Source: Candidatus Micrarchaeia archaeon (lineage in GTDB: Archaea > Micrarchaeota > Micrarchaeia > Anstonellales > Bilamarchaeaceae). Taken from it: a stretch of DNA of 64,000 bases. The stretch lies in contig JBNLBN010000002.1 of NCBI GenBank assembly GCA_050303335.1, positions 4,856 through 68,855 on the forward strand, read 5' to 3'. This document shows, one piece after another, positions 3,095 through 52,923 of the stretch (the first letter of the stretch is position 1; each line of letters opens with the position of its first letter). The translations under genes were made by a program, and so were the position numbers. The notes below the pieces were generated by a model. The model saw nothing but the letters and a program-made list of their open reading frames with translations, was not told the origin of the DNA and ran no database searches.

Positions 3095-3180
3095 GCAGGG
3101 GTGGCAGAGCCTGGTCAAATGCGCTAGGTTGAGGGCCTAGTCGGTTAGTCCGTGCAAGAGTTCGAATCTCTTCCCCTGCA
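3095..3180 (+). tRNA. tRNA-Leu (anticodon GAG)
   Basis: This is an 86-nt class II tRNA. It has acceptor GCAGGGG/CCCCTGC, anticodon stem CTAGG/CCTAG with loop TTGAGGG, a long variable arm, and T arm AAGAG-TTCGAAT-CTCTT. Confidence 0.85.
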
Positions 3181-3288
3181 CTTTTACTCATATTCTACTA
3201 AGGTTAAAAGTGCCCAAAACTTCAGGAGGTTCTTGCATGTGTTTGGGGGAAGTTTTCAAACTTGTTTGATTTTCCTCCCCTGCATTTT
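3181..3288 (+). repeat. tRNA-Leu-linked ~100-nt conserved 3' module, copy 1, ending in a second copy of the tRNA 3' acceptor strand (CTCCCCTGCA)
   Basis: It is nearly identical to 4541..4650 (ACTAAGGTTAAAAGTGCCCAAAACTTCAGGAGGTTCTTGCATGTGTTTGGGGGAAGTTTTCAAACTTGTT). It contains inverted repeats AAAACTTC/GAAGTTTT and AAGTTT/AAACTT followed by a T-run. Confidence 0.8.
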
Positions 3289-3315
3289 AAGATTCTTTCT
3301 AAGAATCAATTACTC

Positions 3316-4125
3316 ATGTCTGATTCGCTGCTGCTTTCATTGCTGTTTTTTCTTGGTGTGCTGCTGCAGGCCTTTCTCCTCATATATGGTAAAAAAGTAA
3401 ACTACCTCCAAATCCTGATCGCTTTTGTGCTATCGCTGATTGCCTTTCTACCTGGAAAACGCGAGACAGTATACAATCTCTATCTCCATATACTGGTAGT
3501 TGCTGGATTCTTTTCTTTCTTTTTTGCTGCAATGTTCCAAAAGCAGATACTTCCAAGGATCAATGAACAGACAGTCCTTATTTTCACAGTCGTGCTCTGG
3601 TATGTCTTTATTGTTTATCTTTTCCTGCCAGTATGCATTCCACTGCTACTCATACCCACTTTTGCTACCCTCTACATCAGCTTTTCAAATGCTGAACTTG
3701 GCTACAAGTCCAGGATATTTTTCTATTCCTGGTTTCTTGTGATTGTTGTTGCACTTGCAGTCTCACAGTTCTCCTTCGGTACAATCTCGCTTTTTATGGG
3801 ACAGAAATTCGATGTGATCAATCCAATTGAAATGTTCTTTACAGGCATGGCTTTCCTGTATCTTGTATCTTATGTCTTCTATGTTTTCTACCTTATTCCA
3901 TTTCCAGGAAAAAGGCAAAGCATATCCGAAAGGATAGAGCAATGGAAGGAATATCTTGCCCTGCTGTCAAGCAAATATTCCACCGATCAGATGAACCCCA
4001 TCAATGCTGTTTTGATACTTCTTTCAGGCTTCGGCATTCTTTTCCTAAACCATTTCCTTGACCTTGTTTCGGATTATCTGATAATCAATGCCATGATTGT
4101 TTTATCGCAAATTCGGAAGAACTGA
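3316..4125 (+). CDS. polytopic membrane protein, unknown function
   Basis: The ORF is highly hydrophobic with multiple predicted TM segments. The start is moved to the ATG at 3316 (MSDSLLLSLLFF...) because the track start lies inside the repeat module. Confidence 0.6.
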   Translation: MSDSLLLSLLFFLGVLLQAFLLIYGKKVNYLQILIAFVLSLIAFLPGKRETVYNLYLHILVVAGFFSFFFAAMFQKQILPRINEQTVLIFTVVLWYVFIVYLFLPVCIPLLLIPTFATLYISFSNAELGYKSRIFFYSWFLVIVVALAVSQFSFGTISLFMGQKFDVINPIEMFFTGMAFLYLVSYVFYVFYLIPFPGKRQSISERIEQWKEYLALLSSKYSTDQMNPINAVLILLSGFGILFLNHFLDLVSDYLIINAMIVLSQIRKN

Positions 4126-4454: not shown

Positions 4455-4540
4455 GCAGAGGTGGCAGAGTTTGGTCAAATGCGCCAGATTCAGGGTCTGG
4501 TCGGTTAGTCCGTGCAAGAGTTCGAATCTCTTCCTCTGCA
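4455..4540 (+). tRNA. tRNA-Leu (anticodon CAG)
   Basis: This is an 86-nt class II tRNA. It has acceptor GCAGAGG/CCTCTGC and anticodon stem CCAGA/TCTGG with loop TTCAGGG. The variable and T arms are identical to those of the tRNA at 3095..3180. Confidence 0.85.
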
Positions 4541-4650
4541 CTTTTCCTCATACTCTACTAAGGTTAAAAGTGCCCAAAACTTCAGGAGGTTCTTGCATGT
4601 GTTTGGGGGAAGTTTTCAAACTTGTTCGATTTTTTTTCCTCTGCATTTTT
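4541..4650 (+). repeat. tRNA-Leu-linked ~100-nt conserved 3' module, copy 2, ending in a second copy of this tRNA's own 3' acceptor strand (TTCCTCTGCA)
   Basis: It is nearly identical to 3181..3288. The terminal 10-mer matches the acceptor variant of the adjacent tRNA (CCTCTGCA here, CCCCTGCA in copy 1). Confidence 0.8.
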
Positions 4651-4696: not shown

Positions 4697-7654
4697 TCAA
4701 TTCAGCATTTCGGAATACTGGTGGATCTTCTCCTTGGCATTAGCGCGCAGGAGATTCACCTGGTCGTTCCTATTACGGTTGACGATGCTCGGATCTGAAT
4801 TGTTCCAGCTGAGTTCCTCTCCGGCCCGCAGCCTTTTCATGTTTTCCAGAATCTCCTTCTGCACTTCGCCTTCCCTTGCAATCTGCGCTTTCCTGTATTC
4901 CTCAGCAAGGACCGCCCTCGCGGTCGAACTGTCACCCCTTCTAACAGCATCTTCGACTTCCTGCCTTGCATGCTGTGATGAAGCCTGCACCCTGTATGAC
5001 TGCGTCATGTCATCAGCTGCGCTGTAGCCAACCTTGTAGGCATCATCGGAAACGACACCGTTCTGGTGGCCGAGGTGGTTGACGCTCATGTCGATATAAC
5101 TGGAATTCTTGCTCTTAAGGTCGTCGAAGTTCTTCCACATGGACCTGTAATCCCCCTGGTCAAGGGCCTTAGCCATGCTGCTGCTTGATTCGTGCATGCT
5201 GTCTACCACTGTCGCCTCCCTCATCTTCTGCCTCAGGTCGTCGGGAAGCTTGTCATAAGAGCCATGGAGGAAAGGAAGCAGGTTGTTGTTATTGGTCAGG
5301 TTCTCACCCACAGTTATCGTCCTGCTTACTTCGGATAAATTGGAAGAGATTACTGCGTTTATCGTGGCGGATGTGACATTATGACCCTCAAGCTCTTTTA
5401 CGAATTCTGTTGTCTTTTGGGAAATCACATTTGCGGCTCCGGGCGTGATCGAGTCCCCGATTCTTGCTATGGTATCAGCATCCACACGGGATGCAGAAAG
5501 AACGGAAGAAATCTCCTTTTTCAGGTAATCTGCGTCCATGCTGGTCAGATCGGCATATCTAGTATTGGAAATCACGTAGTTGGTCGCGCTCTGGAACAGT
5601 TCCTTGTCAGGATCAGAGAGCTTCACTTGGGATGATACCTCTCTGGAAAGTGCGATGGATTCTCTGCCGGTATCCCCGAATACCTCGTTCGCCTCCTTTG
5701 CGAAGGTTCTGACTGCCTGTTCCGTGTCCCCGTATTTTTGCAGTATGTCCGGTCTTTTGTTTGGATCCTCTCCTGCAAGGAGTGCAATGGCCTGGTCCGA
5801 TGATTTTGTTTTGGCAGCAGCAATTATGGCATTGTATTCAGTCTGCTCTTTCACGTAATCCCTAACGTCCTCCCTCCTGTTGCTGAGCTCGTTGGAAAGG
5901 CTGGAATTCAGTTCTATTGAATTGAGTATCTCGACATTATGGTCATGTTCCTTTATGTATGCCGATGCATCGCTTCCGACGTCCATGTCAGAGTATATCT
6001 CCTTGAATTTCTGGTATGTGCCCAATACGAATGCCTGGTCCTGAATCACCCTGGCCTCGCCGTTTTGGGTTGCTGTCACCGATCCGTCTGCGTTCACGGT
6101 TATCACGGATGGCTCCTTCTCTCCCGGAAGGAGCATGTTATAGCTGATCTGAGTCACAGTTCCGTCCTTGTCCATTGTGACCTGGATGTTTCGGTATTCC
6201 GACTCAAAAGTTACTCCGTTTGCATCCGTGACCTCAGTCTTTCCGTCGTGGTATCCGTCCTTTCCGGCGTCAACTACTATGTCGAATGTCGTTTCCTTCA
6301 GGTTGCCGTTATCATCATATGTTCTTGTGCACTTTGTGATCTCTGCCCCGTTTGCCATGAGTCCCCCGTATTCGCCCTTCATCTCTATCGACAGGGCATC
6401 AAGGACTATCAGGTCGTTCTGGGTCCTGGCTTCGTGGTCTACCAGGAAATCATTGACAAGGTCTTTTTTCGTGGTTGCTTTGTAAATGTCGCCGATCATC
6501 TCCCCGATCGTGGATGATGCGAAGAAATACACTGCTATCTTTCCTGCGGTCATGAACGCTGCCTTGATACCAGTTTCCCCTTCGTCCGCCTTGACAATCA
6601 GGTCTGTAATACCGACACTACCAATCCCCCTCGCACCGCCGCTTCCACCAATCACCCTCCCATCCGGCCCGACAATCGGCCTGCTGGACTCTCCCCTTCC
6701 TCTAAGGGCGTCAGAAACAGAAGCGCCCTTCAGCCTGGATCCAGCCCTGCTTCGAATCGACATGGTTGTGAATCCTTTTTTAAGGGCGTTGATCTCCTTT
6801 CCGAAAATTATGTTCTCCTTGGCATTTTCGTTGTCTGCCCTTGCAATCTCCTTGAGCCCTTCAGAGAGTCCCTTGTCCGAGATGGTTTCTGCCGCACCGG
6901 CAATTGCCTTCGCTGCCCTGTAGACAGACCGGAAATCAAGGCTGTAGCCCCTCCCCCTTGCCTGATATCGCATGTGCTTTCCCATCCGCGTGCTTCCGAT
7001 GTTGAAGACTCCGAAAGGATTCACTCCGGTCATATAGAGTGCGCCGGCAAGAAGGGAAAATATAATGATAAGCGGAAGGCACATCGCAGGGGTTTTTGCG
7101 GATAATCCTGGCGGCTGGCAGTAGTTTACGACCTCCAGATTGGCAAGGAATTTCTCGCTGCTGTGCGGCATCGGAGGGACAGATCCCAGAGCATTCTCAA
7201 TGTCTCCCGCATCTTCGATTGCGAAGCTTCCCTGGTAAGCACCTGCAGAGCTGTTGATGCTCGCAAAACGGAGGCACTCGGCAAAACCGCACGCAGTCTC
7301 ATTTTCATCAGGATTGCAGAATGGGCAGTAGACTACCTTGAAGTTCATGCAGCCGTCGCTCCAGTCGTTGAAATTGAATTCCGCATGTCCCTCACCGTCA
7401 GTGTAAATCCTGTATACCCTGCTGAAGCCGCTGGAATTTGTCATCTCCACTATCAGGGTGCTGTCAGAAACAGGCATCCTTGAAGTCGACTGGCTGATAT
7501 TCTCATAGTACACGTTGGCCTCGAGGATGTAATTGTCCTTGTCAAGAAGGACAACCATGTTGGCCTGAGGCCTGTTTGCAAATTCCTCACAGGATATGCA
7601 TTCCTGCGCGGCTGATATGAATATCAGGAGAAGAAAGAGAAAAGCAAACCTCAT
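4697..7654 (-). CDS. 985-aa single-pass membrane protein: signal peptide, Cys-containing N-terminal ectodomain, one TM, ~770-aa C-terminal region; unknown family
   Basis: The start is moved to MRFAFLFLLLIFISAAQE (ATG at 7654), about 24 nt downstream of a minus-strand TATA (TTTAAATTT, 7674-7682). The TM segment is CLPLIIIFSLLAGALYMTGV, followed by a basic stretch (RMGKHMRYQARGRGY). I recognise no domain. Confidence 0.7.
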   Translation of the reverse strand: MRFAFLFLLLIFISAAQECISCEEFANRPQANMVVLLDKDNYILEANVYYENISQSTSRMPVSDSTLIVEMTNSSGFSRVYRIYTDGEGHAEFNFNDWSDGCMNFKVVYCPFCNPDENETACGFAECLRFASINSSAGAYQGSFAIEDAGDIENALGSVPPMPHSSEKFLANLEVVNYCQPPGLSAKTPAMCLPLIIIFSLLAGALYMTGVNPFGVFNIGSTRMGKHMRYQARGRGYSLDFRSVYRAAKAIAGAAETISDKGLSEGLKEIARADNENAKENIIFGKEINALKKGFTTMSIRSRAGSRLKGASVSDALRGRGESSRPIVGPDGRVIGGSGGARGIGSVGITDLIVKADEGETGIKAAFMTAGKIAVYFFASSTIGEMIGDIYKATTKKDLVNDFLVDHEARTQNDLIVLDALSIEMKGEYGGLMANGAEITKCTRTYDDNGNLKETTFDIVVDAGKDGYHDGKTEVTDANGVTFESEYRNIQVTMDKDGTVTQISYNMLLPGEKEPSVITVNADGSVTATQNGEARVIQDQAFVLGTYQKFKEIYSDMDVGSDASAYIKEHDHNVEILNSIELNSSLSNELSNRREDVRDYVKEQTEYNAIIAAAKTKSSDQAIALLAGEDPNKRPDILQKYGDTEQAVRTFAKEANEVFGDTGRESIALSREVSSQVKLSDPDKELFQSATNYVISNTRYADLTSMDADYLKKEISSVLSASRVDADTIARIGDSITPGAANVISQKTTEFVKELEGHNVTSATINAVISSNLSEVSRTITVGENLTNNNNLLPFLHGSYDKLPDDLRQKMREATVVDSMHESSSSMAKALDQGDYRSMWKNFDDLKSKNSSYIDMSVNHLGHQNGVVSDDAYKVGYSAADDMTQSYRVQASSQHARQEVEDAVRRGDSSTARAVLAEEYRKAQIAREGEVQKEILENMKRLRAGEELSWNNSDPSIVNRNRNDQVNLLRANAKEKIHQYSEMLN

Positions 7655-7795
7655 GCTAGAAATGGGGTGATGCAAATTTAAACATTTTCCATATTTCCTG
7701 TGAATTTGCACCGGAAAGGATCGCAACTTGATAAAAAAAATATATTTCAGGCGAAAAAAGTGCAGAGTTTAAATATATTTGCGTCAAATCATGTC
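7655..7795. promoter_or_regulatory. bidirectional promoter region with two divergent TATA boxes for leaderless transcripts
   Basis: The plus-strand TTTAAATATA (7768-7777) lies ~24 nt before the ATG at 7796. The minus-strand TTTAAATTT (7674-7682) lies ~24 nt before the ATG at 7654. Confidence 0.5.
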
Positions 7796-8992
7796 ATGCT
7801 TTATCGGGCAATGCTAATTTTTTCCATCCTATCAGAATTTTGCTTTGCTGCAATCGCTCCGGTTGATCTGCAGCCTGCAGTGCCTATAGTGGTTTTCATA
7901 GTTGCCATATTCCTGATCCTCTTGAATCTCGCATCAACAACCCTCAGCCAGCCAAGGCTCAAGAGCTGGGTCAAGATTGAGTTCAGGGAGCTTGTGGCAG
8001 GTATCATCATAATCGTCGCGGTCACATCAGCACTCATCGGATCCAACACGCTGAGTTCGATCCTGACAGGAAGCAATGATTATGTCGGTGTTTCACAGGG
8101 GATCATCGATGAATGGCTCTCAAACTACGACACGGCAAACCAATACATAATAATCACAGCCACAAAGATCCGTTCCGGATCGACCTATTCTCCACATGTC
8201 AATGTCCCAATCTATTGGGTGTCAGTAAGCTATTCCTCCAATCCGCTTGGCGGAATGAACATCCTGCTTATAGGCCTCAACATCGCCGCGCATGCGCTTT
8301 CAAACGTCACATTCATTTACGAGGGCCTGCGCGTCCTCGTGCTCTACTTTAAGATCGTAATCCCCAAGATACTTCTTCCCCTTGCCTTCATAATGCGGGT
8401 GATACCATTTACCAGGAGCACTGGCAATACGTTGATAGCTCTTGCCGTCTCATCAATCGTCTTCCTGCCATTATCAATAATACTCGCAGATGCGCTAAAC
8501 GACCGGATGGGCGACGATTTCCCGAATCCGGTAATAGCAAATACCGGAGTGTTCGATGCTGATCCGTGGGGCATGGTTGCCGGAGAGATTATGTGCGGAT
8601 CCGAAGTGACCCGGGGGCTGCTTTCGCTTGGGGAGCAGCTTTTCTCGATGATCGTCTGCCTGCCATTCATCGTCTTCGGATACCAGGCATGCGTCGATAT
8701 GACAAAGAACATCATCTACCCGATAATGATGATGGCGGTCCAGCTTGGAATGGGTGGAGGGCTTGCGGCATGGACCGGAAAATTCATGGGAGAGATCTAT
8801 CTATCTGACGGAGGGTATGTCGGACACGCGTTCGATGCATTATACCTGTTCCTGGGAGAGGTAAACGATCTCGTACTGATAGGATACCTTGATTTCATAC
8901 TGATTGCAATAATAACAATATCTTCTGCAAGAAGCATATCCACAATGCTTGGGGGCCAGTGGTACATGGCCGGAATCCAGAGGCTGATATGA
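7796..8992 (+). CDS. envelope-locus paralog P1 (polytopic membrane protein, unknown family)
   Basis: It carries the family loop motif LPLAFIMRVIPFTRSTGNTLIALAVSSIVFLP and the C-terminal tail STMLGGQWYMAGIQRLI. The start is revised to the ATG at 7796 from TATA spacing. Confidence 0.7.
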   Translation: MLYRAMLIFSILSEFCFAAIAPVDLQPAVPIVVFIVAIFLILLNLASTTLSQPRLKSWVKIEFRELVAGIIIIVAVTSALIGSNTLSSILTGSNDYVGVSQGIIDEWLSNYDTANQYIIITATKIRSGSTYSPHVNVPIYWVSVSYSSNPLGGMNILLIGLNIAAHALSNVTFIYEGLRVLVLYFKIVIPKILLPLAFIMRVIPFTRSTGNTLIALAVSSIVFLPLSIILADALNDRMGDDFPNPVIANTGVFDADPWGMVAGEIMCGSEVTRGLLSLGEQLFSMIVCLPFIVFGYQACVDMTKNIIYPIMMMAVQLGMGGGLAAWTGKFMGEIYLSDGGYVGHAFDALYLFLGEVNDLVLIGYLDFILIAIITISSARSISTMLGGQWYMAGIQRLI

Positions 8993-9984
8993 TGAAGGCA
9001 TACCTGCTGCTCCTGCTTCTTTCCGCCTCGTCCTTCGCGTGCATTTCCAACGCGACTGACATTGTCATGAGCGAGCAGGGAACAAACATCATGATCATAC
9101 TCTCGCTGACAACAATAGTGATAGCCATTGCATACATGGTGGGATCGGTGCTCCAGAAGCCGGAATACAGCGTATATGCAAAGGACGAGATGTATCACCT
9201 GGGTTTCTCCGTCCTTCTCCTTGTCTCATTCAGCGGGATTCTTGTCTTTTCCTGCTTCCTGATGGATTTTTTCTACACATCGTTTTTCCAGGAATCCGGA
9301 ATGTTCGGAGAAGCAGGGATGGAATCAAGATGCTACATGGACGGCCTCGGGATGAACGAGGTCGCTTCATGCTATGCCGAAGCAGTCTCTGATGATGCGC
9401 AGGCAGTTTCCGAAAGCTACATAGATGGATACGTGGACCAGCTGATGAGCTCCACATTCTCATGGAGCTTCCAGATCCCGCTTGTAAATTCCCTCACATC
9501 AACTGGCGGCGCATTCAGGAGGGTGGTCTCGAACCAGTATGACATTATCCTTAATACATTCCTCGTCCCGGCAATGGTAAGCATCAGCATGCAGAAGATC
9601 GCAATTGATTTCATTTCCGAAAACGTAATACAGTGGATACTGCCGATAGGATTCCTGCTCCGGTTCTTCATGCTGACCAGGGAAATGGGAAACATAGTCA
9701 TTGCGCTTTCCTTTGGGCTCTACATACTGGTTCCATTCCTGTATGTATTCAACTTCGCCATGTACGAGGGAGTACTTGTAGACTGCTATCAATTCGTTAA
9801 CGAGGTCTGCGACAACGTATTCGACAGCTACTGCCAGCCCCCCCAGGTAGCATGCACCAATATACAGGGATTCTGGAACGTCGGAAGGCTGATACCAATG
9901 GCATTTTTCCTTCCGAATCTGACTATAGCACTTTTCGTGACATTTCTTGCGGCCGTAAATAAGGCCCTTCGGGTGGTTGGATGA
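8989..9984 (+). CDS. envelope-locus paralog P2 (signal peptide + polytopic membrane protein)
   Basis: It has the signal-like N-terminus MMKAYLLLLLLSASSFACISNA and the motif LPIGFLLRFFMLTREMGNIVIALSFGLYILVP. Its ATG overlaps the P1 stop. Confidence 0.7.
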   Translation: MMKAYLLLLLLSASSFACISNATDIVMSEQGTNIMIILSLTTIVIAIAYMVGSVLQKPEYSVYAKDEMYHLGFSVLLLVSFSGILVFSCFLMDFFYTSFFQESGMFGEAGMESRCYMDGLGMNEVASCYAEAVSDDAQAVSESYIDGYVDQLMSSTFSWSFQIPLVNSLTSTGGAFRRVVSNQYDIILNTFLVPAMVSISMQKIAIDFISENVIQWILPIGFLLRFFMLTREMGNIVIALSFGLYILVPFLYVFNFAMYEGVLVDCYQFVNEVCDNVFDSYCQPPQVACTNIQGFWNVGRLIPMAFFLPNLTIALFVTFLAAVNKALRVVG

Positions 9985-12041
9985 AAAGACTGTTCATACT
10001 CCTGCTTTTATTTTCAATTTCTCTGGCATCCAACTCCGCGGGGCAGTTCGAGGATGCAACAGGCGGTTCGCCGCTTGAACTCGTTTCGGACTGGAGGGTT
10101 ATAGCGATCCTTTCGATCGTCTTTTCAGCCATCCTTGTTGCTATTGCATATGCAGCCGGAATCGGATTCGAGATGCCTGAAATCAAGGCATGGGCAGGTA
10201 TCGAACTGACGCAGATATTCGTAAACGCGATCATCATCGTTTCACTTCTCGCGGTCATCTCATTCCTTGACGCCCTCGTTGTCGGAATGGTCTACAGCAG
10301 CGGGCTGGAGATCAACGAATGCACGGGGTTCGGTCAGCAGGAATACGAAACATGCCTTCAGGCAGTTGCGATTGAATATCTTGAGGACTATGAAACCACT
10401 CTGAAAAGCTCCATGAGGAATATCCTGATCGAAAACGTCAAGGCAGTAAATCTCATGAACACGCGCGTAGGCGCTTACTGTACCGGAGTGATATGCGGAC
10501 AGATAGGAATCAGCCATACTATTGCCGCGGAAAATACTCTGGATGTAGACAGGAACACTATACTATTCGAATATTACACAAACCTGCTAAGCTTTCTCAG
10601 GAGCCAACTGTTCTTCGTAAACAATGTATCGTTCAAGATGGGCCCTGTAATACTCGCTGTCGGAATTGTTGCAAGGTCTTTCTTCATGACAAGGAAGCTC
10701 GGAGGCCTACTGATAGCAATATCCTTTGGAATTATATTTTTCCTTCCCGGGATGTACCTTTTCGACTGGGCCACGATGGACATGTTCGTTAACGGCGACA
10801 AGGCGCTGGATGCGGCAGCCTCCTCATGCCCGTCGGAATGTACGAAAAAGGCTCCGCTGGCATACTACTATGACGGAGGGGACCTCATGCTCATCGAGGA
10901 TCCGACGGAACTGCGGCAGATGTTCCTTCCGGAGGATGTCGGTAAGGCTAGCGGCATATACGACGGCTCGATAGCCAGCGCTCCGGGAACGAACGGTTCG
11001 GCACAGGACAGGACGATATTCTCCTGCAGGTCTGATGCCAATACAACTTTCTGTCCTGAGGTGTGCAGGGCCCTTCCCTATCCGTCCATTCCGAACTGCG
11101 CGGATTTTATCACCCAGATCTCGTGCTCACTGGTCCCGAAGGAATGCAAAGTGATAAAGCTCGTGGAGGAACCTGTGCAGAACAGCAAGTGCCCGGATTC
11201 ATGCAAGATAATCCCTCCGCTTCGATCAGACTGCAATACTGGCCCATGCCTGCTTTCAAGCATTGACTGCCGTCTCACCGTGCGCTCGAACACCAACTGG
11301 CGCCCGTCCGTCAGCGATGAAGTGGATTCTGACAAGAAGGCATTCTGCGACCTTGCGCAATATTGCGAGGCAAATTACAATGCAAACCTTTCATGCGTCT
11401 ACGTGATGCCAGTTACCGGACCATGCGATGGCGAGGGGAGCGTCTGCCAGGGCTGTCCTGCACAATGCCGTGTGACCGGAGGGAATCCAGCGAACATGCC
11501 GCCGGAATGCCAGCTCTATGCGCTCTCATGCTCTCTTTGCCATGAAACATGCAAAGTCGACATATCCGACATAAGCTCCCTTAATGCCCAGCCGCCATCC
11601 TGCATGGGCTGTCCGCTGGAACGGAGGCTGATGGGCCCCGACCTTCCGGAGGAATACAGCCTGGACCTGGCGGCCGAGGGCGGATACCAGTGTTCATTCA
11701 GTTCCTGCCCCGCGCAATACCGGGCATTTCTGCCCAGAAGCTCCTGCGAGGAATGCCTATTTACCGAAGAATCCGAAACATACAGCCCGGCAATCAACAA
11801 CCAGTGCGATGAATCCTGCAAGCCTACCATATCAGCGCATATAAAGGACCCTGATTCCTACTCGACCGTCGGAGGAGACGGTCTCGTGGGGAAACCGGAC
11901 ATACAGTCGCTTTCAAAGATGATGCTTCCTATCTACGTACTGCCGCTCTTCAATTTCGTTGCTACAATCGTTTTCATTAAAGGCCTGTCAAAAATGCTTG
12001 GAGGGGATATTGAAATCCCGGGGATCTCGAAGGTGTTCTGA
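9981..12041 (+). CDS. envelope-locus paralog P3 with ~350-aa cysteine-rich ectodomain insertion
   Basis: It has signal MKRLFILLLLFSISLASNSA, motif VGIVARSFFMTRKLGGLLIAISFGIIFFLP, and tail LSKMLGGDIEIPGISKVF. About 32 Cys (my count) lie between the motif and the last TM. It overlaps P2 by 4 nt. Confidence 0.75.
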   Translation: MKRLFILLLLFSISLASNSAGQFEDATGGSPLELVSDWRVIAILSIVFSAILVAIAYAAGIGFEMPEIKAWAGIELTQIFVNAIIIVSLLAVISFLDALVVGMVYSSGLEINECTGFGQQEYETCLQAVAIEYLEDYETTLKSSMRNILIENVKAVNLMNTRVGAYCTGVICGQIGISHTIAAENTLDVDRNTILFEYYTNLLSFLRSQLFFVNNVSFKMGPVILAVGIVARSFFMTRKLGGLLIAISFGIIFFLPGMYLFDWATMDMFVNGDKALDAAASSCPSECTKKAPLAYYYDGGDLMLIEDPTELRQMFLPEDVGKASGIYDGSIASAPGTNGSAQDRTIFSCRSDANTTFCPEVCRALPYPSIPNCADFITQISCSLVPKECKVIKLVEEPVQNSKCPDSCKIIPPLRSDCNTGPCLLSSIDCRLTVRSNTNWRPSVSDEVDSDKKAFCDLAQYCEANYNANLSCVYVMPVTGPCDGEGSVCQGCPAQCRVTGGNPANMPPECQLYALSCSLCHETCKVDISDISSLNAQPPSCMGCPLERRLMGPDLPEEYSLDLAAEGGYQCSFSSCPAQYRAFLPRSSCEECLFTEESETYSPAINNQCDESCKPTISAHIKDPDSYSTVGGDGLVGKPDIQSLSKMMLPIYVLPLFNFVATIVFIKGLSKMLGGDIEIPGISKVF

Positions 12042-13084
12042 TGAGAAGACTGGTATTTCTTGTACTGCTGATGTCTGTTGCTTCTGCCGCTTCATGGCAG
12101 GAGGTCACTTTCATTTCGATTTCAGTATCCGCATTCCTAATTGCAAGCGTCTTTATGATAGGTTTCGGTTTCGGAATATCAAGCCTCCAGATGATGGCCC
12201 GGGAGGAATTCTTCCAGCTGATCGCGATGGCAGTGCTGGTGGTGCTGCTTCTTGGTGCCGACGGGATTCTGAACGGCATTTCAGGGGTATTCTCGCCTTC
12301 AACCTCACTGCAGCAGCTTTCCCTGAACATCCTCTCGGAAGACAAGGCTTCAGTATCGCTCCTGATAAGCCAAATCGGGATTTTCGACCTTGGGGTCTCC
12401 AAGGAGGCATCAAGGACCAGCCAGTGCAGCATGATGTATACAGGTTACTCGGTAAGCGGTTGCGGAGGATACGCGATGCTTGCGCCCCAGCTCTCGATGG
12501 CAGGAGGAATCGCCGGATTCGCTCTTGCAGAACTGAGTGCTGCAGAGAGGCTGATACAGATCGCAAATTCATATTCCCTCGGCATGCTGCTTCCTATCGG
12601 TATAATCCTGAGGACTTTCAAGATAACGCGCGGTGCCGGCGGATTCCTTATAGCGCTCGGAATATCATTATACCTCCTTCTTCCGGTAGGGATCGTGTTC
12701 AATGAAATGCTTGTTGAAACCTTCAGGCAGTCTGATGATCCGAGGGTGGTTGATTATACCATGCCTGCTTTCAGCGCAAGCGTGGTGCCGTGCAATCCTG
12801 GTGATGCAACTCCGCCTCCATTCGGGGTCGATCTCTTCGGTGAGATCGGAAGCGCTATAGGAGGCGATCTGGGGCTCCTTCTCGGATCAGATACGAATGA
12901 GGAACGAGCGATAGGAACATATGGCGTGATGAGGCTCAATACAAGGAACAAGATGATGACGATGCTACTGGAAGCGACATTCGGGCCGATAATCGGGCTC
13001 CTTCTTGTCGTTTCAGGGATAAGGACGCTGACATTGATTGCGGGATCAGACGTAGATGTAAGTGCTTTGGCGAGGTTTGTCTGA
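12041..13084 (+). CDS. envelope-locus paralog P4
   Basis: It has signal MRRLVFLVLLMSVASAAS, motif LPIGIILRTFKITRGAGGFLIALGISLYLLLP, and tail LIAGSDVDVSALARFV. It overlaps P3 by 1 nt. Confidence 0.75.
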   Translation: MRRLVFLVLLMSVASAASWQEVTFISISVSAFLIASVFMIGFGFGISSLQMMAREEFFQLIAMAVLVVLLLGADGILNGISGVFSPSTSLQQLSLNILSEDKASVSLLISQIGIFDLGVSKEASRTSQCSMMYTGYSVSGCGGYAMLAPQLSMAGGIAGFALAELSAAERLIQIANSYSLGMLLPIGIILRTFKITRGAGGFLIALGISLYLLLPVGIVFNEMLVETFRQSDDPRVVDYTMPAFSASVVPCNPGDATPPPFGVDLFGEIGSAIGGDLGLLLGSDTNEERAIGTYGVMRLNTRNKMMTMLLEATFGPIIGLLLVVSGIRTLTLIAGSDVDVSALARFV

Positions 13085-14157
13085 TGGTCGATGCCGTGAT
13101 ATGCACCCCTGTTTTTGAAAATTTCATGAACAATACGATAGTCCCGCTCGTCCTGTTCTCTTCAATAGCCACTTCGGCACTGATAGCGCTTTCATACATG
13201 GTCGGCAATGCGATCTCTAATGCGAAGCTCACTTTCTGGGCCAAGACCGAGGCAGTGCAGATAGTGATATCAGCTATGTCTATCGTGTTCATCTTGGCAA
13301 CCGTGAACGGCTTCTGCTCCATCAACATGGGGGAGCTCTCATCATTCTTCACTGACATCGACACTCCCCAGGACCTGAATCTCTTCGATGCAGCGCAGGA
13401 ATACCTCCGGGAGACAATGCTATACTCCCATAATGCGATGACCGCGGTCAGGTATCACCTGGAGGGGTACACCGTGCTCTCTTTCCTGAATTCATTCTCA
13501 TGTGATTTCAAGCTGGGCCCGATCGGCCTTGGATGCCTGCACGGATATTCCGGAACATCCGGGCTTCCGGTCGGAGGATACGGGGCAATTATAGCAGCCC
13601 TCAATATATTCTTCAATTCCACTATCATGTCCTATTTCTCGGCTATGAATTACCTGTTCATCCTTCTGTTCGTCTACAAGGGATTCGTTTTCCTTTTCCT
13701 TCCTGTTGGCATATTCGTGAGGTCCTTGCCCTACCTCCGTTCCTTCGGCTCGGTTCTGATCGCAATAGCACTCTCGTTCCTGCTCGTATTCCCGTTCATG
13801 CTGAGCATCTTCTATCTGATGGGAGATGTCCTCCTTGACCGCGGGAACAATTACGAGCCGCAGGTGGGGAATCCTCCGATGAACAGCTTTTATTATGAAA
13901 AAAGATATCCTGATAATGAATACGCCTCAATCGGGACCAGCATCGCAGGAGAAGAGCTTGGAGTATGGATAACAAGGCAGCTCTATTTCCCTTCAGGTGA
14001 GAATCCAGGAGGGGCGATAATATTTGCAGCCTACGCATTCCTTGCAGCAGTGTTCATGCCTACTGCAGCACTGATTGCGACCATAGCAAGCGTCTCTTAC
14101 ATTTCAAGGCTTTACGGCGAGGAGATAGATCTCTCAAGAATAACCATGATGGTGTGA
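13084..14157 (+). CDS. envelope-locus paralog P5
   Basis: It has motif LPVGIFVRSLPYLRSFGSVLIAIALSFLLVFP and tail SRLYGEEIDLSRITMMV. It overlaps P4 by 1 nt. Confidence 0.75.
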   Translation: MVDAVICTPVFENFMNNTIVPLVLFSSIATSALIALSYMVGNAISNAKLTFWAKTEAVQIVISAMSIVFILATVNGFCSINMGELSSFFTDIDTPQDLNLFDAAQEYLRETMLYSHNAMTAVRYHLEGYTVLSFLNSFSCDFKLGPIGLGCLHGYSGTSGLPVGGYGAIIAALNIFFNSTIMSYFSAMNYLFILLFVYKGFVFLFLPVGIFVRSLPYLRSFGSVLIAIALSFLLVFPFMLSIFYLMGDVLLDRGNNYEPQVGNPPMNSFYYEKRYPDNEYASIGTSIAGEELGVWITRQLYFPSGENPGGAIIFAAYAFLAAVFMPTAALIATIASVSYISRLYGEEIDLSRITMMV

Positions 14158-14160
14158 ACT

Positions 14161-15192
14161 ATGCTTACGATACAAAGTTTTTTCGGGGATATGACTGGAT
14201 TGCAGTGGTCCGGCATCTGGCTTCCTCTAGTGATACTTGCAGTATTTACATCGATAATGTTCTACAACATCCTGCTGATGATCGGCAAGGCATTCTCGCT
14301 TCGCGAAGTGGAACGGTTCGCGAAATCCGAGATGCTCCAGGCACTATCCACCGCATTCATGGCATCGTTCCTGGTCATGCTGGTTGGCGGAGCGATGGAA
14401 CTGACCGGACAGTTTCTGCATGGCGAATTTGCATGCGGCGATGATGTCATTCACATATCGAGCCTTGATGACGGCCAGTCGACAATGGAGAATGTTTTCG
14501 ATGCAATAAGGTGCAGGCTTCAGTCGAGGGCAAAGGAAGTTGCAAGGATCCAGGGCGCACTGGTCGGAGGCCTCGGCCCTGCAAATGAATTCAACCTTCT
14601 CAATACTGCGCTAAGCAGTTTCGGCATCACGTTCTTCAAGGGAGACTGGGTCGGCGAACTTTACCGCGCAGTCGAGACAAAAAGGATCGCTAACAATCTT
14701 GCAACCGTGCTTCTTATCGGCCTTAACGCACAGTCCGACGTCCTCCAGTATATCAAGATTAATTCCCTGAATGTCCTTCTTCCGCTTGGCATCCTTCTCA
14801 GGAGCTTCTATTTCACAAGAAGCGTCGGCGCACTCTTCATTTCAATCGCAGTCGGGATGTTCTTCATATTCCCGGTATTCTTCATCCTTCTCGATCCTGG
14901 ATTCACGGCATCAGCACCCCCTCCGTCTTTTGCAGGGGCCCAGCAGGAAACATTCTGCTATGCTACAATGAAGAACACGATCTCGATGGTCGATGCAATT
15001 TCGCAGCTTAGCGCCGCCGGACCAAACCTCGGGATGGAACAGCTTGAAGAGGACCTGACTAAGTCATACATCTCCCTGATCATCCATCCGCTCGTTTCAT
15101 TCTTCCTGACAATGGTTTTCATAAGGTACATGATGGTGCTTCTTGGAGGCGACAGCACGGAAATAACCCGAATGGTGACAAAGGTGGTCTGA
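14161..15192 (+). CDS. envelope-locus paralog P6
   Basis: It has motif LPLGILLRSFYFTRSVGALFISIAVGMFFIFP and tail MVLLGGDSTEITRMVTKVV. A 3-nt gap separates it from P5. Confidence 0.75.
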   Translation: MLTIQSFFGDMTGLQWSGIWLPLVILAVFTSIMFYNILLMIGKAFSLREVERFAKSEMLQALSTAFMASFLVMLVGGAMELTGQFLHGEFACGDDVIHISSLDDGQSTMENVFDAIRCRLQSRAKEVARIQGALVGGLGPANEFNLLNTALSSFGITFFKGDWVGELYRAVETKRIANNLATVLLIGLNAQSDVLQYIKINSLNVLLPLGILLRSFYFTRSVGALFISIAVGMFFIFPVFFILLDPGFTASAPPPSFAGAQQETFCYATMKNTISMVDAISQLSAAGPNLGMEQLEEDLTKSYISLIIHPLVSFFLTMVFIRYMMVLLGGDSTEITRMVTKVV

Positions 15193-18100
15193 TGAGATTA
15201 TTGCTATTGATGATTCTGTTGGTGTTTGCCGGATGCCTGGCCCCGGTCGAGAAGCTCGGCTGCTGCCAGAAGGAAAACATCAGCGAAGGCTGCGTACTCT
15301 ATAATACCTCTGACTTTACCAGTATCGACATGACTGGCCAGACTGTTGCACAGTCATGCGACAATCCGGATATGGATACCGAGGGATACTGCAATGTCTC
15401 GGTAAACAATAACTACCGGCTGATCCCAATATGCACCCAGGAGGATATTGTCGAATGTGTTGATCCTGGATGCACTGCGATGGTATGCGGAGATTTCTCA
15501 TACAAGCCGAGGATTTCGCCCGTAGTAACTGATGATGAGGATCTTAGCAGCGCGACACCCACTGATTCTGATGACAGTGCGACAATCCAGTTCTACAAGT
15601 CGCAGTGCCGGTTCCTTCCGATGGATGTCGACCTGCGCCAGATCATGAAGAATTCCAAATCATCGATAAACGTCTTCCGCGTTGGGATAGGTGGTTCGTT
15701 CGACGAATACGACCAGTACAGGTATTATTTCCCGATGGCAGACGAGTTCTGCAGCGCAGCAATCTCCGGAGGATTCTCAGGAACTGTAGATCGGTATATG
15801 AATTACCTGGACCTGGCGGACAAATCGGTGTTCGATCCGGATGAAATCACAGAGAACTGCTTTGATGACGACAGCGTGCAGGGCCCATACATGAACCAGG
15901 AATCTCCGGCACTGAATCTTCCGGGGTATTACGGACTGTTCACCATCTCTACCGTGGAACCTGAAAAGAACAACTACAAGTTCGTCCATTTCATCAACTA
16001 TGACTTCACTCCGGTCTGGACACAGGATCTCCTCAAAGGGGCAGGTTATCAGTACATCCCCGGTTTCATAAACGGCCACAGCCTTTACAAGGAAATCGAC
16101 AAGGACTTCTACAAAAGGGAACTGTCCATTGCACATGCGAGTTCCATCTATGATATCGATGGCACGGGAAGCACAAGAGCACCGTTCGAATGCTCCATGT
16201 CGGAAAATAACTGCCTCTCAGGAAGCTGCAACAGTGATTTCTACAACCGCGGGGTGTTCGTCGATGCAGACAACAACAATGATATCGTGACCGACTGCAC
16301 CAGGATGAAGGACGAAAACGGAAACCAGCGGATCATATGCCTTCCAACAATAGCAGGTTCCATTGCCGAGTCAGATGATGGCAGCCCGCCTTCAAGGGAA
16401 TATTCAGATGTGACTGCAAAGGTTACGCATATTGAGATCAGCACTGTCGGTAACATGGATTTCACATACGAGGATTTCATTGATCCAGAGGCTGATCCGA
16501 AGATGATCGATTACTGGGATGCATGGGGGCTCTATCTCGAGCCGCTGGTCGACAGGTATGGCAATCCGCATTATGTATCAAGTTCTTCGAAAGTCCTGAC
16601 AAACGTTCCAACAGGAATATCACACTACTATTCGATTGAATATGTCTATGATGACGAGGGCCATTACCAATATTCCTACTACAAGCTGAATCAGGGCTTC
16701 TATTCCGGAAGCTACGGGCCTCCGGCAGGCGGTGCGGTGTTCTTCGGGAAAATCAGCGATGAGCCTATGAGGTACGGAGACGGTGAAGTGATTGGCTATG
16801 CTATGGGAGACGATTTCGATGAGACGCTTCTTGCCCAGAACTGCGAGCTTGAAGAGAACGAGGATTATGTAGTAGTGAGCCTCGGATCGCCGACCAACTG
16901 GCAGAGCTCCGGGATGATGTCTCTTTTCAGGCCATACTATGAGGATGTCCTCAAAAGCTACAAGACCTATGGTTTCGAGGAAGGCTGCGGGGATAAAATG
17001 CTTGCAACGGATTCAGTGGTTGCTTCGATGCCATGGGTGATAGCTTTTGAAAAAGGCGGACTTTCGGGGGGCCCTCTCAACACCGACTTAAGGTACAGGT
17101 TCACAGACTATCCCAATGCCTACTGGATGGCATCCACTCCGGCTTTCGGAGCATTTGCAAACAACGTGTACGATGAATATATGTACCGTTTACTCGATGC
17201 GGGAAGCTGCAGCCTCAGGATGAGCCGCTATGACTCTCCCTTGTCTAATGATTACTACAATATAGTGTACCCAAATAACTTTGTCCTACTGATCAACAAG
17301 GGCGATGACAGGTTTGGAAGATGCTCACTCGACAGGTCGACTATGTTCCCTGAGCTCAGGACATTCGGCTGGTGCGAGCCGTGCTCCACCTCCACACTCG
17401 CGTACCAGGAGATTTCCACTACCCCCAGGCCTTATCTTCCGGGCTATAAGATGAAACTGGATCCAGGGGCAACCACTTTCGAACCCCAGATCTGCTGGTC
17501 CCAGTACGAATCACACTGGGATTTCGATTTTTCATCCCAGCCGTCATTCAACCTTACAGACAACGTGACATGCTACAATCCATCAATTCCTGACATCAGT
17601 GATTACAAGGGAAGCATTGGAAACATAGGTTCTCCAAGGACCATACCTGAAGCAAGCGTTATGAAGAAGAGGCTCGGAAACTACCTCCGTTCCGGAGTCC
17701 TGCCGGTCCTTGATCTGACGGACGAATCAAACTGGAACATCACCAATCCGGATGCTGAAAGCGTCGGGTGGGACCTCTTCCAGCTGTTCTACGACACGAG
17801 CCCGGAGGACTATTCCCAGTATGACTTTGAAAGGCTGATAGGGAGGATGGGCGCTGCAGTAATAATCGTGGATACCGTATCAGAATATGATGTACAGTTC
17901 AAGGTTTCGAGAATTATCGACCGGGCATCGATAATCAAGCAGAAATGCTTCGGCTGCATCACCGCATTCCATGTTCAGAGCCCGCCCGACAATGAAAGTT
18001 TCAATTATACAATTAACAGCGTCCTGAGCAATCCAACAGCCCAGCGCGTGATAGAGATGGTCACTTTCGACTATCCTATCTCCGAGCACGGTTTCAGCGA

Positions 18101-19013
18101 GCCTGAGGATGTGCTCAGCGACATATCGTCATTCGGCCAGACCTCCCTCTCAAGCAAGGCAAAGCCTGTCATGGTGGTCGGGCTCAATGTACGCAGCGAT
18201 GACGAGCGATGGGAGGGCCGCTATGAGGATCTTTTTGAAAAAATCCTGATGGGCCAGGACGACCTTGTGAGGAACGGCGTTGTCGGAATCATCTACTCTC
18301 CTGCAAGGTCGGCTGCATCAGCAGAAGGGATAATTGACACATCCAGCGATCCTTCATTAGGCCTGAAAACGGAAAAATTCTGCGCGCTCCAGGGAGCAAT
18401 GGAAAAGATGACCGCAACAACTCCAACGACGATCTTCTCGAAGGTGCTTGTACAGGAGGAGAACCAGTGCGTGCCCTGCACTCCGTGGGATTATCTTTCG
18501 GGCGGGGTCTGCAGCGATACCCTCTCAAGTACGCAAAGGCACATATGCGACGGCGGCGGTTCATGCACACTCCCTCCGGGAATTGCCGAGACGGACGATG
18601 AGAAATACAAGTGCCTTGAAGGGACAGTAACAATGGACTGCAGCCTTTGCACCGATTCCTTGCTGGATTTCAGCTGCATCTACACATATGCAAACGGGTC
18701 TTCAAGATCCTATCCCTCATCAGCAACACTGCCCCTCTCGGATCTTAGTTCAGATATATATCTGGATATTATTGCAAGCCTTCCGAAGCCTTATAAGTGC
18801 TGCCTGATGGATGAAGGAAGCGGTCTCAAGTATACCTACCGGAAGGACACATATCAAAGCCCCATCAACAAGCCGGTAGTATTTCCCAAGAACGGAGGGG
18901 ATGTCGATTGCGGATCAGGAGTCGATCTGGAAGATCTTGGTGAATCGAGCACCTTCTGCGGTCTCCAGCAGTCTCCGATAAGGGACTATGCCATCAACTG
19001 CGAAATCAGCTGA
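15192..19013 (+). CDS. 1273-aa cysteine-rich secreted protein, putative lipoprotein (lipobox-like VFAGC); unknown family
   Basis: The N-terminus MRLLLLMILLVFAGCLAP resembles a signal peptide plus lipobox. Cys clusters occur at both ends (GCCQKE..., CVPCTPWDYLSGGVCSD...CDGGGSC...). It overlaps P6 by 1 nt. I recognise no domain. Confidence 0.75.
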   Translation: MRLLLLMILLVFAGCLAPVEKLGCCQKENISEGCVLYNTSDFTSIDMTGQTVAQSCDNPDMDTEGYCNVSVNNNYRLIPICTQEDIVECVDPGCTAMVCGDFSYKPRISPVVTDDEDLSSATPTDSDDSATIQFYKSQCRFLPMDVDLRQIMKNSKSSINVFRVGIGGSFDEYDQYRYYFPMADEFCSAAISGGFSGTVDRYMNYLDLADKSVFDPDEITENCFDDDSVQGPYMNQESPALNLPGYYGLFTISTVEPEKNNYKFVHFINYDFTPVWTQDLLKGAGYQYIPGFINGHSLYKEIDKDFYKRELSIAHASSIYDIDGTGSTRAPFECSMSENNCLSGSCNSDFYNRGVFVDADNNNDIVTDCTRMKDENGNQRIICLPTIAGSIAESDDGSPPSREYSDVTAKVTHIEISTVGNMDFTYEDFIDPEADPKMIDYWDAWGLYLEPLVDRYGNPHYVSSSSKVLTNVPTGISHYYSIEYVYDDEGHYQYSYYKLNQGFYSGSYGPPAGGAVFFGKISDEPMRYGDGEVIGYAMGDDFDETLLAQNCELEENEDYVVVSLGSPTNWQSSGMMSLFRPYYEDVLKSYKTYGFEEGCGDKMLATDSVVASMPWVIAFEKGGLSGGPLNTDLRYRFTDYPNAYWMASTPAFGAFANNVYDEYMYRLLDAGSCSLRMSRYDSPLSNDYYNIVYPNNFVLLINKGDDRFGRCSLDRSTMFPELRTFGWCEPCSTSTLAYQEISTTPRPYLPGYKMKLDPGATTFEPQICWSQYESHWDFDFSSQPSFNLTDNVTCYNPSIPDISDYKGSIGNIGSPRTIPEASVMKKRLGNYLRSGVLPVLDLTDESNWNITNPDAESVGWDLFQLFYDTSPEDYSQYDFERLIGRMGAAVIIVDTVSEYDVQFKVSRIIDRASIIKQKCFGCITAFHVQSPPDNESFNYTINSVLSNPTAQRVIEMVTFDYPISEHGFSEPEDVLSDISSFGQTSLSSKAKPVMVVGLNVRSDDERWEGRYEDLFEKILMGQDDLVRNGVVGIIYSPARSAASAEGIIDTSSDPSLGLKTEKFCALQGAMEKMTATTPTTIFSKVLVQEENQCVPCTPWDYLSGGVCSDTLSSTQRHICDGGGSCTLPPGIAETDDEKYKCLEGTVTMDCSLCTDSLLDFSCIYTYANGSSRSYPSSATLPLSDLSSDIYLDIIASLPKPYKCCLMDEGSGLKYTYRKDTYQSPINKPVVFPKNGGDVDCGSGVDLEDLGESSTFCGLQQSPIRDYAINCEIS

Positions 19014-19569
19014 ATTTTCCCTCGAAGACAATCTCATCAAGTGGCTTCCTGCCAGTGATCTGTTCCTTTTCCCGGATTCCTTCGGGCAGGTCATCCGGAT
19101 TTCCAGGCTTCCCGATCGCGATCATGCAGTGGATCTCATGGTCCTGCGGAAGTCCGATCACCTGCACAGCCTTAACATAATCGAATCCTTCCATTGCATG
19201 GGCTATCAGGCCCCTGCTGTGAGCCTCTAGCGCAAGGTTTTCCCATGCGGCCCCTGCATCGAAGGCATGGGTCCTTGAAGGCTTTCCGTTATATTCGAAC
19301 TTCCTGCTTGAGGTAACGATCACAAGCGCAGCGGCATTCCCCGCCCATCTCCTGTTGAAGTCGCCCATCAGTCCAAAGAAGGAATCCCAGTATCCGCTTC
19401 CCCGCAGCGCATAAACGAATCTCCATGGCTGGTTGTTGAAGGATGAGGGCGCCCATCTTGCAGCTTCGAAGAGAGCCATGATCTCGTCTTTTGCGACATT
19501 TCCATCAAGGGCCCTCGGTGAATGCCTGTTAAGGATCAAATCACTGATCTGATAATTCGGTTTTCTCAT
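19006..19569 (-). CDS. nitroreductase family protein
   Basis: The segments LNRHSPRAL, ARWAPSSFNNQPWRFVY and the C-terminal IAIGKPG are typical of the FMN nitroreductase fold. Confidence 0.8.
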   Translation of the reverse strand: MRKPNYQISDLILNRHSPRALDGNVAKDEIMALFEAARWAPSSFNNQPWRFVYALRGSGYWDSFFGLMGDFNRRWAGNAAALVIVTSSRKFEYNGKPSRTHAFDAGAAWENLALEAHSRGLIAHAMEGFDYVKAVQVIGLPQDHEIHCMIAIGKPGNPDDLPEGIREKEQITGRKPLDEIVFEGKFS

Positions 19570-19653
19570 AAAATGGTACTCGATGTAAATTCCTATAAGG
19601 TTTTTTCCAAATCGACCAAAAGTTTTTTATATAAAATTACAATAATACCTGTA

Positions 19654-20751: not shown

Positions 20752-20899
20752 ATCCGCACCTGGGACAACGTGCCCTGAAGCTCCCCTTTACCTCAAACAT
20801 ATCCTCTCCGCACGACGGACATTCCATGGAAGTCAAATCCAGCCAATATTTATAAGGCGATCCCATAAGCTATATAATATTGCCTCAGGAAACAATGTC

Positions 20900-50414: not shown

Positions 50415-50495
50415 GAATATATACTTACTGTAACAGTATTTAAATACTTGCTTTATTCTGACCTCAAAGACCATCTCTGAGATTGCCTGTTTTTG

Positions 50496-51362: not shown

Positions 51363-52897
<1,535 letters not shown>

Positions 52898-52923
52898 AAA
52901 ATTCAAATCACACTTTGAATAAA

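Follow-up and report, generated by a model that had tools for sequence, protein, structure and literature searches.

VirB6 of type IV secretion systems (T4SSs) is a symmetric oligomer located at the stalk base. In Rickettsiales, tandem arrays of VirB6 paralogs are thought to build the membrane platform of an envelope-spanning machine (PMC7648143). The Tweety homologs TTYH1-3 have five transmembrane (TM) segments, an N-out/C-in topology, helices that run from the TM region into the ectodomain, and disulfide-bearing loops (PMC8361169). In Microcaldus variisymbioticus ARM-1, cryo-electron tomography (cryo-ET) revealed a 21-nm barrel-shaped 'docking platform' at the site where host nanotubes reach the envelope of the symbiont. 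This platform sits beneath the surface layer (S-layer), and in the authors' view it may be made of symbiont proteins (PMC11329633). Here, we compare these systems with an eight-gene module of about 14 kb (4697-19013) in a 64,000-nt stretch of DNA from a Candidatus Micrarchaeia archaeon (contig JBNLBN010000002.1). The whole stretch is called the window, and all position numbers refer to it. The module encodes six paralogous membrane proteins (P1-P6), a large Cys-rich secreted protein (G8), and a bitopic protein (G0). This set of six fixed paralogs with five predicted TM segments, a giant Cys-rich ectoprotein, and a bitopic protein, without an ATPase, is unlike known secretion, pilus, transport, and S-layer systems.

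P1-P6 resemble the VirB6/TrbL proteins in being tandem paralogous polytopic inner-membrane proteins of a single operon, some of them with very large hydrophilic extensions. However, no relation to VirB6/TrbL was found in sequence or fold, and the module contains neither the ATPases nor the pilin of a T4SS. The likeness to TTYH1-3 and the prominins lies in the five predicted TM segments with N-out/C-in topology, in TM helices that appear continuous with long extracellular helices in the predicted structure, and in the probably disulfide-stabilized loops. In contrast to the eukaryotic TTYH proteins, which form homo-dimers or homo-tetramers, the module has six fixed paralogs. In addition, the fold similarity between P1 and TTYH is below significance, and there is no profile match. 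G8 is comparable to glycoside hydrolase (GH) clan GH-A, since its predicted barrel has significant fold matches there and is preceded by beta-sandwich domains, as in GH2. Yet sequence identity to these enzymes is just 7-12%, no Pfam GH family matches, the barrel has no invariant glutamate, and about 800 further residues of unassigned domains surround it. The ARM-1 docking platform is also a large multi-subunit envelope structure at a host contact site, and it occurs in the same NCBI phylum. No genes have been assigned to it, however, and its link to the module is purely circumstantial.

Gene organization of the module

G0 (4697-7654, minus strand) is a 985-aa protein, counted from the Met that opens its signal peptide; its orthologs begin at the same Met position. 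The other seven genes are on the plus strand. P1 (7796-8992) encodes 398 aa, and P2 (8989-9984; 331 aa) starts with a 4-nt overlap with the P1 stop. P3 (9981-12041; 686 aa) overlaps P2 by 4 nt, P4 (12041-13084; 347 aa) overlaps P3 by 1 nt, and P5 (13084-14157; 357 aa) overlaps P4 by 1 nt. P6 (14161-15192; 343 aa) follows P5 after a 3-nt gap, and G8 (15192-19013), a Cys-rich secreted protein of 1273 aa, overlaps P6 by 1 nt. P1-P6 are translationally coupled. The region between G0 and P1 (7655-7795; 141 bp, no strand) probably acts as a divergent promoter. An A/T-rich TATA-like box lies about 20-27 nt 5' of each start codon, TTTAAATATAT for P1 and TTTAAATTT for G0. Because of this short distance, both transcripts are suggested to be leaderless or near-leaderless.

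A first-pass annotation had described this region as one envelope locus with a single transcript for the seven chained genes. The ORF (open reading frame) map agrees exactly with its gene coordinates, its overlaps of 1-4 nt, and its single 3-nt gap, and these overlaps, together with the same gene order in 45 of 45 loci, are in line with one co-transcribed, co-conserved envelope locus of a DPANN archaeon. Its account of the proteins also holds. Six paralogous polytopic proteins are recovered by BLASTP and by an invariant motif that they share. The putative Cys-rich lipoprotein of 1273 aa has 43 Cys and a near-invariant lipobox-like G-C, and the divergent 985-aa protein has one TM segment.

Conservation of the module in Micrarchaeota

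Comparison of related loci shows that the eight genes are a single co-inherited unit of predicted membrane and secreted proteins. It also strongly supports the view that the eight products form a single complex. The window contains archaeal 16S rRNA, ribosomal protein, and RNA polymerase genes. In the current NCBI taxonomy, Micrarchaeia belong to Microcaldota, a phylum of the DPANN kingdom Nanobdellati. When the G8 alignment was used to scan one genome for each GTDB species, with patterns drawn from Micrarchaeota sequences, 52 loci were found, all of them in Micrarchaeota. Homologs with a source organism name were likewise all from Micrarchaeota (Micrarchaeia, Anstonellales, Bilamarchaeaceae, and 'ainarchaeum'), where the hits of the paralog family that were inspected are the best 150 of 2,879.

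The paralogs in these loci were identified with a hidden Markov model (HMM) of the six window paralogs against six-frame ORFs. Exactly six family members lie directly upstream of G8 in every locus with enough flanking sequence (45/45), and their size order is alike throughout, at about 400, 335, 700, 330, 355, and 345 aa. Each window paralog has its best match in the gene at the same position in all 45 of these loci. Therefore, the six-fold duplication predates the sampled radiation, and every copy has been kept since. By this positional orthology, P1-P6 are shown to be six separate orthologous groups that were fixed before the phylum radiated. G0 adjoins the module in 38 loci. In 36 of them, it is divergent and located upstream of P1, and in the other two it is downstream of G8. 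These two are an Anstonellales locus and an 'ainarchaeum' locus, in which the G0 ortholog follows G8 on the same strand (L052:13495-15813 and L053:14134-17718).

Two genomes hold two copies of the module, arranged in tandem in one case. The duplication always includes all eight genes, and identity between the copies is only 36-62%. The en bloc duplicates are L045/L046 (CAILMU010000061.1) and L022/L026 (isolate PMV_4.13). Fixed order, orthology by position, and duplication en bloc form the pattern that is expected of the subunits of one co-adapted complex.

In 35 loci, a gene for a protein of about 111 aa begins about 5 nt after the G8 ortholog (for example, L004:13818-14153). The protein is amphipathic near its N-terminus and has four zinc ribbons, with matches to DZR/DUF7577, and it could be a ninth, cytoplasmic component of the module. 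No such gene follows G8 in the window, where a convergent nitroreductase gene abuts G8 instead.

The membrane paralogs P1-P6

The six proteins are mutually paralogous, with pairwise BLASTP E values from 3e-13 at best up to 1e-2 and identities of 22-36%. The motif LLPxGxxxR-x5-R-x2-G-x3-I-x10-P is invariant in all six (multiple alignment A1), and its residues are also kept in an alignment of 69 diverse family members (A4). In P1, this family signature (aa 194-225; 8375-8470, plus strand) runs from the end of TM3 through a short, basic loop on the cytoplasmic side and includes TM4. The family has many members, with 2,879 matches at E<=1e-3 and 1,962 at E<=1e-10 in a profile search against 1.84 billion representative proteins. 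Some family members reach 1,100-1,700 aa, and one of them, from Micrarchaeia, carries an N-terminal CARDB domain.

Each paralog is predicted to have five TM segments and an N-out/C-in topology, since hydropathy, an AlphaFold2 (AF2) model of P1, and the composition of the loops agree on this. The P1 model (predicted local distance difference test, pLDDT, 85.3; predicted TM-score, pTM, 0.70) is all-helical except for one beta-hairpin, and its long TM helices extend from the membrane into two extracytoplasmic helical regions. According to hydropathy, a signal-like N-terminal segment is present in P1-P4 and absent in P5 and P6. The paralogs have two long, acidic loops (about 90-115 aa and 41-380 aa), and their short loops are basic. 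Cysteines are confined to the N-terminal segment and the two long loops.

Conservation is highest on the predicted cytoplasmic face. P1 has 40 orthologs at 39-54% identity. Across P1 orthologs, the column identity is 0.76 in cytoplasmic loop 1, 0.87 in cytoplasmic loop 2, and 0.89 in the C-terminal tail, which reads ...LGGxxxxxGIxRLI. The ectodomains are the least conserved part, with a column identity of 0.54-0.63. P3 has 36 Cys, 32 of which are found inside a single extracytoplasmic insert of 380 aa between TM4 and TM5 (about aa 266-640; 10776-11900, plus strand). This insert contains ten C-x2-4-C motifs, including CPSEC, CPEVC, and CPDSC. The gene at position 3 is always the longest paralog in related loci (572-919 aa), and a large insert is a constant feature of P3.

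The Cys-rich protein G8

G8 is a protein of 140 kDa with 43 Cys and is read here as disulfide-rich. Its N- and C-terminal regions are rich in Cys, and the alignment of 79 homologs (A3) contains invariant Cys columns. In total, 91 homologs were found, with 30-46% identity and many invariant residues. The predicted signal peptide ends with the lipobox-like F-A-G-C (aa 12-15; 15225-15236, plus strand), and the N-terminus reads MRLLLLMILLVFAG-C. The Phe at position -3 is non-canonical. The G and C of the lipobox (columns 47 and 48 of A3) are near-invariant, in at least 90% of the 79 homologs, which fits a lipid anchor. G8 is thus probably lipid-anchored.

An AF2 model of aa 21-1220, built from the 79 homologs, has a pLDDT of 84.6 and a pTM of 0.79. 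It contains several beta-sandwich domains and a region of alternating beta and alpha elements at about aa 815-1085 (17634-18446, plus strand). Foldseek against the PDB identifies this region as a (beta/alpha)8 barrel with a clan GH-A-like fold. There were 76 matches at E<=1e-3, the best with an E value of 1.4e-5 and a probability of 1.0. The best 50 of the 76 are all TIM barrels, nearly all from GH2, GH53, GH10, GH1, GH5, and GH72, and designed Kemp eliminases on a GH10 scaffold are also among them. The GH2 beta-glucuronidases align over 520-610 columns and thus take in the upstream sandwich domains. The highest TM-score to the target among the matches listed is 0.49, for a GH53 galactanase. 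In this model, the barrel fold is all that G8 shares with known enzymes. The GH72 Gel/Gas proteins of fungi are lipid-anchored at the surface and contain a barrel plus a C-terminal domain rich in Cys. G8 has the same combination, with a putative lipid anchor.

Clan GH-A enzymes typically carry N-E-P at the end of strand 4, with the acid/base Glu there and the nucleophile Glu at the end of strand 7. In G8, the presumed strand beta4, assigned without superposition, ends with F-D-Y-P, in which Tyr is invariant. No invariant or near-invariant Glu was found within the barrel in the 79 homologs when conservation was combined with secondary structure, again without superposition. The glutamates that canonically act as acid/base and nucleophile therefore seem to be missing from the barrel. 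Because no Glu is invariant and the presumed strand 4 ends with F-D-Y-P, glycan binding or a non-canonical role is more likely than hydrolysis.

The single-pass protein G0

Hydropathy predicts a signal peptide and one TM segment in G0. The ectodomain (aa 18-189; 7088-7603, minus strand) has about 170 aa and 10 Cys and is conserved, with the elements YCPFC and CGF..C. The TM segment (aa 190-210; 7025-7087, minus strand) is followed by a conserved, basic juxtamembrane motif, NPF..F....R.G.H.RYQARGRG. In the 40 G0 orthologs, only the ectodomain, the TM segment, and this motif are conserved. Since a strongly basic stretch follows the TM segment, the positive-inside rule places the C-terminal approximately 775 residues in the cytoplasm.

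A tRNA-Leu gene lies just downstream of the G0 stop. It is the second of two in this part of the window (anticodons GAG and CAG; 3095-3181 and 4455-4541, plus strand), and the two are located around a 287-aa ORF (3262-4125) with no Pfam match.

Searches for known families

The first-pass annotation had stated that none of the eight proteins could be assigned to a family. This stands for the paralogs and G0. It is no longer fully true for G8, as the model of G8 holds a clan GH-A-like barrel. The eight window proteins had no match beyond noise in Pfam, NCBIfam, PHROGs, and PADLOC. No recurring family was found in Pfam scans of 69 diverse family members, taken singly, or of seven giant family members together with seven large G0/G8 orthologs. 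No domain was recognized in G0 and five of its orthologs, and G8 and two larger orthologs gave no Pfam/NCBIfam match and no GH family HMM. PDB sequences matched neither the single proteins nor the profiles A1-A4, of which A1, A2, and A4 represent the paralogs and A3 represents G8. Apart from G8, whose barrel fold is known from enzymes, no protein of the module has a detectable relative with a known structure or function. Full-text searches of the searchable literature found no description of this module.

Foldseek comparison of the P1 model with 350,542 PDB chains, and with the viral folds of BFVD, gave no match at E<=0.001. The six best PDB matches, over about 400 columns, are all TTYH1-3, with E values of 0.012-0.045 and probabilities of 0.47-0.82. 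Their TM-scores of 0.16-0.20 are far under the level of a shared fold, and this is a resemblance only. Tweety/Prominin Pfam models matched neither the window proteins nor the 69 family members.

The earlier annotation had named two findings that would speak against a novel apparatus, a match of the paralogs to a characterized family such as VirB6/TrbL, TadB/C, or a known transporter, and a lack of co-conservation. Profile and fold searches gave no such match, and the block is rigidly co-conserved in all 45 loci. VirB6/TrbL was rejected as an identity of the paralogs. TrbL was unmatched at E<=1 in 75 proteins (six from the window and the 69 family members), the hhalign comparison of the A4 profile with R388 TrwI/VirB6 gave a probability of 0.16%, and neither VirB6 nor another T4SS chain occurs among the 50 best P1 fold matches listed from the PDB. 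VirB4-, VirB11-, and VirD4-type ATPases, pilin, and other T4SS genes were found neither in the module nor in its flanks, here or in related loci. A platform protein of a type II secretion system (T2SS), a type IV pilus, or a Tad system (GspF/PilC/TadB/TadC) was also rejected, as there is no T2SSF match and no ATPase in the block. The N-termini in the module are ordinary signal peptides or signal anchors, not of the class III pilin type. The Pfam/NCBIfam scans and these N-termini agree with the annotation that ATPase, pilin, secretin, and sortase signals are lacking. In Pfam and in the P1 fold search, the paralogs show no likeness to any known sugar transporter. The S-layer protein identified in Micrarchaeota is nearly free of sulfur-containing residues (bioRxiv 10.1101/2021.04.28.441871). 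With its 43 Cys and no S-layer Pfam domain, G8 is ruled out as such a protein.

Proposed function and alternative explanations

We favor, tentatively and at slightly less than even weight, a phylum-specific Micrarchaeota envelope complex in which a platform of 5-TM proteins carries disulfide-rich, glycan-binding ectodomains for surface contact. P1-P6 would assemble at a fixed 1:1 stoichiometry, most simply into a hetero-hexamer that forms a pseudo-symmetric ring or platform of the cytoplasmic membrane. Residues at the cytoplasmic face, a Glu at the start of TM2 and two Arg in the TM3-TM4 loop, may hold P1-P6 together, and the shared Glu/Arg/Arg and the C-terminal tails may connect the subunits or bind partners. 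Helical ectodomains would project outward. Together with the P3 insert and the G0 ectodomain, they would hold the lipid-anchored G8 in the space that separates the S-layer from the membrane, or on the surface. There, the G8 barrel may bind glycans of the host glycocalyx, of extracellular polymeric substances (EPS), or of a glycosylated S-layer. Because the module has no ATPase, the complex would act passively in contact or anchoring, and it could also gate host-derived material. A role in host contact is supported by context, since the cultured Micrarchaeon A_DKE needs biofilm/EPS contact and host lipids (PMC8975820). The complex may function in attachment or exchange, as the first-pass annotation had also supposed.

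Several observations weigh against surface contact by such a glycan-binding complex. The loss of catalytic residues in the G8 barrel rests on conservation and secondary structure, not on structural superposition. The conservation of G8 and the ectodomains (30-46% identity) is unlike that of fast-evolving host-specificity adhesins, and a housekeeping role fits it equally. Ectodomains so well conserved across the phylum would be more typical of a general machine of the envelope or of cell contact than of an adhesin with host specificity. A search with an Anstonellales G8, made to link the module to the cultured A_DKE, Mia14, and ARM-1, returned just Anstonellales and metagenome-assembled genome proteins. 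Finally, the G0 cytoplasmic region of about 775 aa is poorly conserved among the 40 orthologs and finds no explanation in the model.

The conservation of G8, with many invariant residues, makes a role in S-layer anchoring or envelope scaffolding a serious rival, although we consider it unlikely on balance. The complex would then anchor the S-layer or space it from the membrane, as a stalk or an organizer of a pseudo-periplasm, with no direct role in host contact. The phylum-wide presence of the module beside core genes and its well-conserved ectodomains agree with this. In the window, the neighbors are genes for ribosomal proteins and RNA polymerase, and in other genomes they are Pcc1, prefoldin, and ScpB. 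For the S-layer protein of Ca. Micrarchaeum harzensis, a membrane anchor is not certain, and a second, membrane-bound stalk protein was proposed by the authors (bioRxiv 10.1101/2021.04.28.441871). Densities that span from the S-layer to the membrane are seen in the cryo-ET of ARM-1 (PMC11329633), and a barrel that binds glycans could retain a glycosylated S-layer protein. However, known S-layer anchors are single proteins, for which six polytopic paralogs and a 775-aa cytoplasmic tail seem excessive, and no S-layer gene is co-localized in the window or in related loci. A different use of the membrane part, which we regard as distinctly improbable, is uptake. Here, the paralogs would resemble Tweety/prominin proteins, have a cavity in the ectodomain that opens to the membrane, and move host lipids or other hydrophobic compounds into the symbiont membrane, while G8 docks. 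That the six best fold matches of P1 are all TTYH1-3 and that the predicted topology equals that of TTYH (PMC8361169) can be read in this way. TTYH2 mediates lipid transfer (PMC12328215), and A_DKE relies on host lipids (PMC8975820). Nevertheless, the E values and TM-scores of these matches are far below those of a shared fold, the Tweety/Prominin Pfam search was negative in the window proteins and the 69 members, and conservation is highest in the cytoplasmic loops, not in the cavity.

The barrel itself raises the question of whether G8 is an active extracellular glycosidase that degrades host EPS or glycocalyx, with the membrane proteins importing the products. A GH-A-like barrel that follows beta-sandwich domains, as in GH2, and the sugar-rich EPS matrix produced by the host of the cultured Micrarchaeon (PMC8975820) would suit such a nutritional enzyme. 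The barrel without an invariant Glu, the F-D-Y-P in place of N-E-P at the presumed beta4, the lack of a Pfam GH match, and paralogs unlike known sugar transporters make it very unlikely. That the module is not a cellular apparatus but the remnant of a virus, a plasmid, or another mobile element, for example with genes of a fusogen or of a conjugation-like system, is essentially excluded. The module is duplicated in some genomes, it has large Cys-rich ectoproteins, and its flanks differ between the window and most other genomes, which are points in favor of such an origin. But no locus of the phylum with sufficient coverage lacks it, orthology follows position, and its GC content matches that of its surroundings. 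There are no integrase, ATPase, or capsid genes nearby. PHROGs gave no match, IMG/VR no relatives, and BFVD no fold match.

A more novel view of the module can be considered, to which we assign only a small chance. In this view, it would be the symbiont-side part of an intercellular DPANN-host connection, for example, of the 21-nm docking platform of ARM-1. P1-P6 would then be the membrane ring or gate, G8 the glycan-recognizing wall of the barrel-shaped structure, and the cytoplasmic region of G0 an inner receiver.

Other features of the window

A gene for a PAS histidine kinase (19522-20751) is found directly downstream of the module region. Two genes of the Na+/H+ exchanger family are present in the 64-kb window, although the genome is small (20699-22132, plus strand; 38739-39935, minus strand). 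A 706-aa protein (32411-34531, minus strand) has no Pfam match. Five paralogous soluble proteins of 304-597 aa (44379-50474 and 35528-36949, minus strand) are 49-75% identical and share the N-terminus ...LLSLLSIARSPAATKATEAHRKLLLPDPTIE..., with no real Pfam match. Four of the five are in tandem, in a stretch with a GC content of 0.41 and a strong negative GC skew. They look like a family that expanded in this lineage. The archaeal 16S rRNA gene (51363-52898, plus strand) is complete, with no 23S rRNA gene in the 11 kb after it, and the rRNA genes appear to be unlinked.

Significance

Micrarchaeota and other DPANN archaea have genomes of about 1 Mb and rely on hosts for lipids and metabolites. 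In such a genome, about 14 kb are given over to the module. Its gene order is invariant in every related locus examined, and it is duplicated only as a whole, which argues for an indispensable, co-adapted machine. As it matches no known machinery, it is a strong candidate for a cell-surface apparatus of Micrarchaeota. It offers eight candidate genes, a new family of predicted 5-TM proteins (about 2,900 sequence clusters), and a candidate for glycan binding. If the docking-platform reading is true, the module would represent a new class of ATPase-less intercellular exchange machine. Even if it is a housekeeping scaffold, it would be an undescribed archaeal envelope complex with a fold that has no solved relative.

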